Of a DNA stretch of 64,000 bases, positions 47,531-47,900 are shown in pieces. Below the pieces are notes generated by a model that worked only from the letters and a program-made list of their open reading frames with translations, did no database searches and had not been told where the DNA came from. Numbering within the stretch: position 1 is the first letter of the stretch; each line of letters starts with the position of its first letter. The translations under genes were made by a program, and so were the position numbers. The stretch lies in the NCBI RefSeq assembly GCF_988242995.1, contig NZ_OZ547043.1. The stretch is one strand, 5' to 3'.

Positions 47531-47559
47531 TTGCATGAAAACGCGAGCGGAGTATAGTG
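47531..47559 (+). promoter_or_regulatory. Sigma-70 promoter of the initiator tRNA cluster
   Basis: TTGCAT -35, 16-bp spacer, TATAGT -10, then GC-rich discriminator, just upstream of the first tRNA. Confidence 0.6.
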
Positions 47560-47571
47560 CGCATCCACGGA

Positions 47572-47648
47572 CGCGGGGTGGAGCAGCCTGGTAGCTCGTC
47601 GGGCTCATAACCCGAAGGTCGTCGGTTCAAATCCGGCCCCCGCAACCA
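47572..47648 (+). tRNA. metZ: Initiator tRNA-fMet (anticodon CAT)
   Basis: 77-nt sequence cgcggggtggagcagcctggtagctcgtcgggctcataacccgaaggtcgtcggttcaaatccggcccccgcaacca; K-12 names assigned by order. Confidence 0.95.
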
Positions 47649-47681
47649 ATTAAAATTTGATGAAGTAAAGCAGTACGGTGA

Positions 47682-47758
47682 CGCGGGGTGGAGCAGCCTG
47701 GTAGCTCGTCGGGCTCATAACCCGAAGGTCGTCGGTTCAAATCCGGCCCCCGCAACCA
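47682..47758 (+). tRNA. metW: Initiator tRNA-fMet (anticodon CAT)
   Basis: Identical 77-nt copy, second in the tandem array. Confidence 0.95.
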
Positions 47759-47792
47759 ATCAAAATTTGATGAAGTAATAGCAGTACGGTGA

Positions 47793-47869
47793 CGCGGGGT
47801 GGAGCAGCCTGGTAGCTCGTCGGGCTCATAACCCGAAGGTCGTCGGTTCAAATCCGGCCCCCGCAACCA
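47793..47869 (+). tRNA. metV: Initiator tRNA-fMet (anticodon CAT)
   Basis: Identical 77-nt copy, third in the tandem array. Confidence 0.95.
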
Positions 47870-47877
47870 ATTATTGA

Positions 47878-47900
47878 ACACCCTAACGGGTGTTTTTTTG
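47878..47900 (+). terminator. Intrinsic terminator of the tRNA-fMet operon
   Basis: acaccc-taac-gggtgt hairpin followed by a T-run. Confidence 0.7.

Follow-up and report, generated by a model that had tools for sequence, protein, structure and literature searches.

Three tandem initiator tRNA genes that very probably constitute the metZWV operon of Escherichia coli, and their copy number in complete genomes

The window analyzed here, a single stretch of 64,000 nucleotides, contains a tandem array of three tRNA genes that is almost certainly (a probability of about 97%) the metZWV operon of Escherichia coli, in which three tRNAfMet1 genes are expressed from one promoter. The locus is a textbook and ordinary one, and the finding is already known. 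In K-12, metZWV comprises three identical tRNAfMet1 genes at 63.5 min, while a fourth initiator gene, metY, lies elsewhere (PMC3017606). The first-pass annotation of this DNA had arrived at the operon reading, which stands, but the long-characterized metZWV locus went unrecognized. No observation contradicts this reading, for which gene identity, anatomy, locus, conservation, and the copy-number alleles in other genomes come from the present analysis, and co-transcription, promoter function, the effect of gene dosage, and the binding of Hfq and small RNAs come from the literature.

In the whole 64-kb window, ARAGORN finds exactly three tRNA genes, all tRNA-Met(CAT) and all on the plus strand, which is the isotype and the copy count on which the first-pass annotation had staked its claim. 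The Rfam tRNA model (RF00005) scores 61.4 bits for each copy against a gathering score of 29, and a repeat finder reports a single three-copy family with unit spacings of 110 and 111 nt. By direct comparison, the three 77-nt sequences are identical and CCA is encoded in each. The copies correspond to metZ (47572–47648), metW (47682–47758), and metV (47793–47869), each identified by ARAGORN, Rfam, and the identity elements described below, and metZ also by the RefSeq annotation of identical DNA. Between metZ and metW lies spacer 1 (47649–47681, plus strand; 33 nt, ATTAAAATTTGATGAAGTAAAGCAGTACGGTGA), which is the same as the K-12 spacer, and between metW and metV lies spacer 2 (47759–47792, plus strand; 34 nt, ATCAAAATTTGATGAAGTAATAGCAGTACGGTGA), a strain variant with respect to K-12. 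The two spacers of the window are distinguished by a single T/C substitution and a single inserted T. The description of three identical 77-nt tandem initiator genes separated by 33–34-nt spacers with few differences is therefore accurate, with ARAGORN, Rfam, the repeat finder, and direct comparison in agreement on the genes. Two further Rfam matches, to YrlA (27 bits, gathering score 69) and AaHKsRNA82 (28 bits, gathering score 51), overlap the tRNA bodies and the two terminator hairpins and were rejected because they fall well short of these thresholds.

The label “tRNA-Met” used by ARAGORN and RefSeq (PGAP) spans initiator tRNA, elongator tRNAMet, and the lysidine-modified tRNAIle2. Because this label is ambiguous, the initiator determinants were checked one by one. 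In each gene, ARAGORN reports the anticodon cat at position 35. Position 1 is a C that faces A72, giving the unpaired C1xA72 mismatch, and the Rfam alignment marks this pair as non-standard. The anticodon stem features three consecutive G:C pairs (G29:C41, G30:C40, and G31:C39), the purine 11:pyrimidine 24 pair is present as A11:U24 (A11:T24 in DNA), and the discriminator base A73 is followed by CCA. Base 46 is G in the identical copies, which indicates the tRNAfMet1 species, and the array sequence is identical to that of E. coli tRNAfMet1. Judged by these sequence elements, the array genes are initiators of the fMet1 species. A northern probe for tRNAfMet printed in PMC3017606 also matches all three copies, and for the identical K-12 tRNA, methionylation, formylation, and use in the P site have been established experimentally (PMC3017606; PMC6265465). 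More generally, CAT-anticodon tRNAs that are labeled “Met” call for such checks of identity elements.

The genomic setting is equally characteristic. When 1.2 kb around the array was used as a query, 5,425 of 5,426 complete E. coli genomes gave a match, strain N3 with 100% identity. Annotated under the match are mltA, three tRNA-Met genes, and amiC, and the same layout is found in K-12 MG1655. The upstream, divergent neighbor is mltA (murein transglycosylase A; 46266–47363, minus strand) and the downstream, convergent neighbor is amiC (N-acetylmuramoyl-L-alanine amidase; 47944–49197, minus strand), both assigned from their ORFs and from RefSeq annotation, for mltA that of the matching DNA. Over 41 kb around the array, from sdaCB and the fuc operon at one end to recBCD and ptsP at the other, the genes are arranged as in K-12, with the succession fuc operon, gcvA, csdAE, tcdA, mltA, the tRNAs, amiC, argA, recD, and recB. 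The homology arms of published K-12 metZWV knockout primers match exactly at 47536 and 47870 (reverse strand).

Several other features of the window were recorded. CsrB (24292–24651, minus strand; 383 bits) and GcvB (42881–43086, plus strand; 199 bits), the latter adjoining gcvA, are both full length and are as expected for this stretch of the E. coli chromosome. The intergenic region between tcdA and mltA contains an Rfam match to the small RNA ES036 (CssrF) at 46102–46144 on the minus strand (46.5 bits, gathering score 37.6). This region is 238 nt long in the window and in K-12 and 76 nt in N3, so that the best-matching genome lacks 162 nt here. A csdA frameshift annotated in N3 is absent from the window, where the csdA ORF is intact.

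Upstream of metZ, a compact promoter can be recognized on the plus strand. An A8 tract (47521–47528) is found 2 nt upstream of the −35 hexamer TTGCAT (47531–47536), which is followed after 16 nt by the −10 hexamer TATAGT (47553–47558) and then by a GC-rich discriminator (GCGC) and a very short 5' leader, GCGCATCCACGGA (47559–47571), that is kept across genera. Both hexamers, and with them the whole stretch between the A-tract and the first base of metZ, are identical to K-12. Of the consensus positions, 3/6 are matched in the −35 hexamer and 5/6 in the −10 hexamer, for a total of 8/12. The first-pass annotation was right that a sigma-70 promoter is present, but “near-consensus” overstates it: a sigma-70 consensus scan with a threshold of 9/12 does not report the metZWV promoter, which it misses because the −35 hexamer has only 3/6 matches. 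Conservation is more informative. A run of 5–8 A is found at the equivalent position upstream of the arrays in 20 other Enterobacterales genomes, the −35 hexamer is conserved as TTGCA(T/A) across genera, and GAGTATAGTGCGC occurs without change in 19 of the 21 upstream regions from other Enterobacterales, the exceptions being Edwardsiella and Xenorhabdus. Overall, the block A5-8-(G)GG-TTGCA(T/A)-N16-17-GAGTATAGTGCGC(A/T)TCCACGGA is kept in about 20 Enterobacterales genera, whereas the DNA farther upstream is unrelated. An A-tract abutting the −35 hexamer and a GCGC discriminator are usual in strong, growth-rate-controlled stable-RNA promoters. Both are likely strength elements of this promoter, with the A-tract likely acting as a proximal UP-element-like enhancer, and stringent control may be exerted through the GCGC discriminator. 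From the distance to the −10 hexamer, transcription probably starts near 47565. In K-12, promoter-down mutations (T-to-C in the Pribnow box and G-to-A just upstream of it) sharply lower tRNAfMet1 and reporter activity (PMC3017606). These mutants, together with the identity to K-12 and the conservation across genera, are the reason for taking TTGCAT-16 nt-TATAGT as the promoter.

At the other end of the array, an intrinsic terminator was identified by a terminator scan and by its folding energy (47876–47902, plus strand). The hairpin (47876–47895) has the form GAACACCC-TAAC-GGGTGTTT, with an 8-bp stem that includes four G:C pairs and a 4-nt loop, and is followed by the T run TTTTTTTGTTT. Its folding energy is −11.1 kcal/mol, and the scan match, stem, T run, and energy all agree with the clean terminator that had been described. 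The hairpin ACACCC-N4-GGGTG with T7 is conserved in most Enterobacterales genera with arrays; in Tatumella, another hairpin occupies this position. Promoter, leader, and terminator have been kept in about 20 Enterobacterales genera, in contrast to the DNA around them. With a start near 47565 and an end at about 47902, the primary transcript would measure roughly 340 nt. Northern blots place the full-length precursor at about 380 nt (PMC4152368) or about 500 nt (PMC10710024), and this precursor holds all three genes, the spacers, and the ends, and binds Hfq (PMC4152368; PMC10710024). A second hairpin is located directly past the amiC stop codon (47917–47942, minus strand), with folding energies of −12.3 kcal/mol on the minus strand and −7.9 kcal/mol on the plus strand. 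It is probably the amiC terminator and possibly also serves as a second stop for read-through from metZWV. It is tempting to speculate that such read-through yields a transcript of about 380 nt, comparable to the precursor seen on one of the blots.

Two alternatives concern what the array encodes and how it is expressed. The genes could be elongator tRNAMet, or tRNAIle2 with C34 converted to lysidine, since ARAGORN and RefSeq (PGAP) do not tell these three classes apart. However, an elongator needs a paired 1:72 and does not have the three-G:C anticodon stem, and the C1xA72 mismatch, the 29–31:39–41 G:C pairs, A11:U24, the identity to fMet1, and the match to the initiator probe (PMC3017606) leave this reading practically no room; it was rejected on the identity elements. 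Alternatively, each gene could have its own promoter in the preceding spacer, making the array three transcription units. The sequence TAAAAT in spacer 1 matches the −10 consensus at 5/6 positions, but the nearest −35-like hexamer is 19 nt away and within a tRNA, and no promoter-like site passes a scan of the array interior. On K-12 northern blots, the three genes appear together in one full-length precursor (PMC4152368; PMC10710024), and a single point mutation in the K-12 upstream promoter is enough to nearly abolish tRNAfMet1 (PMC3017606). Separate promoters are accordingly extremely improbable, and the layout of an operon with a single promoter holds up, given the sequence identity to K-12 and the K-12 precursor and promoter mutants known from the literature.

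The spacers of this operon are not inert. RybB and MicF co-purify with both metZWV spacers (PMC4583644), and Hfq binds the metZWV precursor via an intergenic spacer (PMC4152368; PMC10710024). This role in small-RNA and Hfq binding is absent from the first-pass annotation and is already published. With the RybB sequence confirmed in E. coli genomes and by Rfam, duplexes were computed for the RybB 5' seed. The predicted duplex with spacer 1 has an energy of −15.7 kcal/mol, a value reached by 0.8% of shuffled spacers, and that with spacer 2 of the window has −13.1 kcal/mol, reached by 5.4% of shuffles. For spacer 2 of K-12, the predicted value is −16.4 kcal/mol. The extra A and the A-to-T change in spacer 2 of the window therefore make its predicted pairing with RybB slightly weaker than that of the K-12 spacer.

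The first-pass annotation had also remarked that perfect repeats of this kind are a substrate for copy-number change by recombination, and this remark is supported by a census covering 5,426 complete E. coli genomes. Ordinary similarity searches return genomes annotated with two or one tRNA at the metZWV locus. However, such searches join overlapping repeat alignments, so that two-copy genomes look “100% covered” and coverage is unusable for counting copies. A synthetic five-copy query was dropped, and three queries with strict E-values were used instead, with only complete junctions considered. With the tRNA-spacer-tRNA junction as query, 5,194 genomes yielded 10,306 junctions in total. The three-junction query found 67 genomes with at least four copies, 26 of which have two overlapping matches and hence five copies, and a query with the single-copy, island-free allele found 109 genomes. 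Solved from these counts, with a small error due to one genome with five junctions and two junctions on plasmids, the distribution is 232 genomes with one or no copy (4.3% of 5,426), about 175 with two (3.2%), about 4,952 with three (91.3%), 41 with four (0.8%), and 26 with five (0.5%). About 9% of complete E. coli genomes thus deviate from three copies. The two plasmid-borne tRNAfMet junctions are an observation in their own right. As arrays have at most five copies, the five junction matches in one genome suggest that the array is present there a second time.

The alleles themselves differ by exact repeat units. Alignment shows that one- and two-copy alleles lack exactly two units or one unit, respectively, and that promoter, leader, and terminator are intact; four- and five-copy alleles likewise differ by whole units. 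Two-copy alleles keep either the spacer-1 type or the spacer-2 type, which implies at least two independent origins. In a five-copy genome that was checked directly, the spacer order is 1-2-1-2, the product expected from unequal exchange displaced by two units. The five-copy allele is found in many clinical isolates whose genomes come from different sequencing groups and is therefore inherited and real. Unequal recombination or replication slippage would account for the gain and loss of units, for which the near-perfect direct repeats provide the basis. The copies are not always identical, as point variants in single copies show. Z1323HEC0477 has a C17-to-T change in the D loop of one copy (882–958 of the retrieved locus), and E. 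coli HS has a C-to-T change in the T stem that converts G49:C65 to G:U.

Not every count in the databases can be taken at face value. The ST648 genome NZ_CP008697.1, “complete” in RefSeq, has no tRNA annotated at the metZWV site and was considered as a genome without an array; this was rejected, since a single N at the array start marks an assembly gap and not a deletion. Here the array was lost in assembly, and database copy numbers at metZWV are consequently not all reliable. Among K-12 derivatives, the assemblies of MG1655p, MC1061, and K-12 C3026 contain one copy, against three in MG1655, and that of XL10-Gold contains four copies whose spacers are all of type 1. These differences are either very recent laboratory changes or assembly errors, and part of the one- and two-copy calls in the census may be assembly collapse. 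The metZWV array is, in short, a real copy-number hotspot as well as a spot of assembly errors.

These cautions bear on the window as well, where the copy number comes from one assembly and assemblers can collapse tandem repeats. The count of three could be an artifact, with the isolate carrying more or fewer copies: tandem repeats of 110 bp are prone to mis-assembly, one database assembly has an N gap at the array, and K-12 derivatives are assembled with one copy or, in XL10-Gold, four. Against this, about 91% of complete E. coli genomes have three copies, and the window has 100% matches in at least two independent assemblies, N3 and AR_0013, which extend to its unusual 34-nt spacer 2. The two spacers can also be told apart, which makes collapse in assembly less likely. 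An artifact at this locus is thus very unlikely, and the window most plausibly carries the common three-gene form of metZWV. A broader question is what the variation among genomes represents. One proposal, a rather doubtful one, is that metZWV copy number is a dosage polymorphism that recurs in natural E. coli and is open to selection; the alternative is neutral repeat instability combined with assembly error. The proposal draws on the roughly 9% of genomes that deviate, on one- and two-copy alleles with at least two independent origins, and on the five-copy allele common to many clinical isolates. In published work, growth rate, cold sensitivity, and the accuracy with which start sites are selected respond to metZWV dosage (PMC3017606; Samhita et al., 2014, as summarized in PMC9981150), and competition experiments (Samhita et al., 2014, from the summary in PMC9981150) suggest a niche-dependent effect of copy number, with more copies expected to be favored in rich medium. 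If the proposal were true, gain and loss of whole units would tune the supply of initiator tRNA to the growth niche, and the number of spacers per transcript that bind RybB, MicF, and Hfq would change too. The 5,426-genome census is an only modestly new product, and it can serve as a baseline for testing selection on initiator-tRNA gene dosage in nature.

Variation at this locus also extends to the DNA just 3' of metV, which is a known insertion point of genomic islands, a point absent from the first-pass annotation. About 36% of complete E. coli genomes cease to resemble the window at 47870–47878, just past metV. Type VI secretion genes are found next to metV in EC958, and in other strains metV is followed by a set of phosphoglycerate dehydrogenase/KpsF (sugar-phosphate) and PTS genes. 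A 32-kb “PAI-metV” is listed for CFT073 (PMC3573123). The islands each carry their own replacement terminator. In the window, metV is directly followed by the native terminator and amiC, and the site is therefore unoccupied.

Open reading frames called across the array require a similar caution. The first-pass annotation had stated that the ORF track translates the tRNA genes into fake repeated peptides; such peptides do exist, but they are on the minus strand. A 100-aa ORF (47627–47929, minus strand) holds the 30-residue peptide WLRGPDLNRRPSGYEPDELPGCSTPRHRTA twice, and a TTG-extended mltA ORF, also on the minus strand, begins within the first tRNA. ORF callers can thus be expected to yield false repeated peptides over tRNA arrays.

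Taken together, the operon is almost certainly organized as follows. One stable-RNA-type sigma-70 promoter, composed of the A-tract, TTGCAT, a 16-nt spacer, TATAGT, and the GCGC discriminator, gives rise to a single precursor of about 340 nt that contains the three tRNAfMet1 genes with their 33- and 34-nt spacers and ends at the intrinsic terminator. Processing then frees three initiator tRNA molecules from each precursor. The three metZWV genes and the unlinked metY make up the usual four initiator tRNA genes, and most of the initiator tRNA in the cell comes from metZWV. In the unprocessed precursor, the spacers bind Hfq and pair with RybB and MicF. At the level of DNA, the near-perfect direct repeats of 110–111 bp would allow unequal recombination or replication slippage to add or remove whole units, giving rise to arrays of one to five copies.

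The closest known system is metZWV of K-12 itself. The array lies in the same mltA-array-amiC locus, with no difference in the three tRNAs, the stretch from A-tract to leader, spacer 1, or the terminator. Spacer 2 differs, being 33 nt in K-12 and 34 nt in the window with an extra A and an A-to-T change, and the flanks show a few single-base differences, at 47505 and, downstream of the terminator, at 47907 and 47916. The remaining initiator gene, metY (tRNAfMet2), belongs to the same tRNA class and its product is identical to that of the array in E. coli B and one base different in K-12 (PMC3017606). Unlike the array, metY is a single gene that heads the rimP-nusA-infB operon beside argG, carries A46 in K-12, and lies outside the window.

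Arrays of other Enterobacterales share with the window the promoter core TTGCA-N16-17-GAGTATAGTGCGC, the leader, and the terminator hairpin, but have two to four copies and spacers of 25–60 nt that differ in length and sequence (about 44 nt in Enterobacter and Klebsiella). In a sample of 76 tandem-array loci from Enterobacterales and a few other gamma-proteobacteria, selected for at least one junction, 47 have three copies, 25 have two, three have four, and in one a single copy is recognized. Two-copy arrays are found in Salmonella arizonae and diarizonae (two subspecies recovered), E. albertii, and Dickeya, and four-copy arrays in Tatumella saanichensis and two Ferrimonas balearica genomes. 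With respect to the spacers, the nearest parallel is the 3' external transcribed spacer of leuZ in glyW-cysT-leuZ, which, like the metZWV spacers, is a transcribed tRNA spacer that binds Hfq-dependent small RNAs and was described by the same laboratory as the binding of RybB and MicF to the metZWV spacers (PMC4583644; mentioned in PMC10710024). In contrast to the leuZ sponge, the binding sites of metZWV are internal spacers that are present twice per transcript, and they are known as binding sites with a putative regulatory effect.
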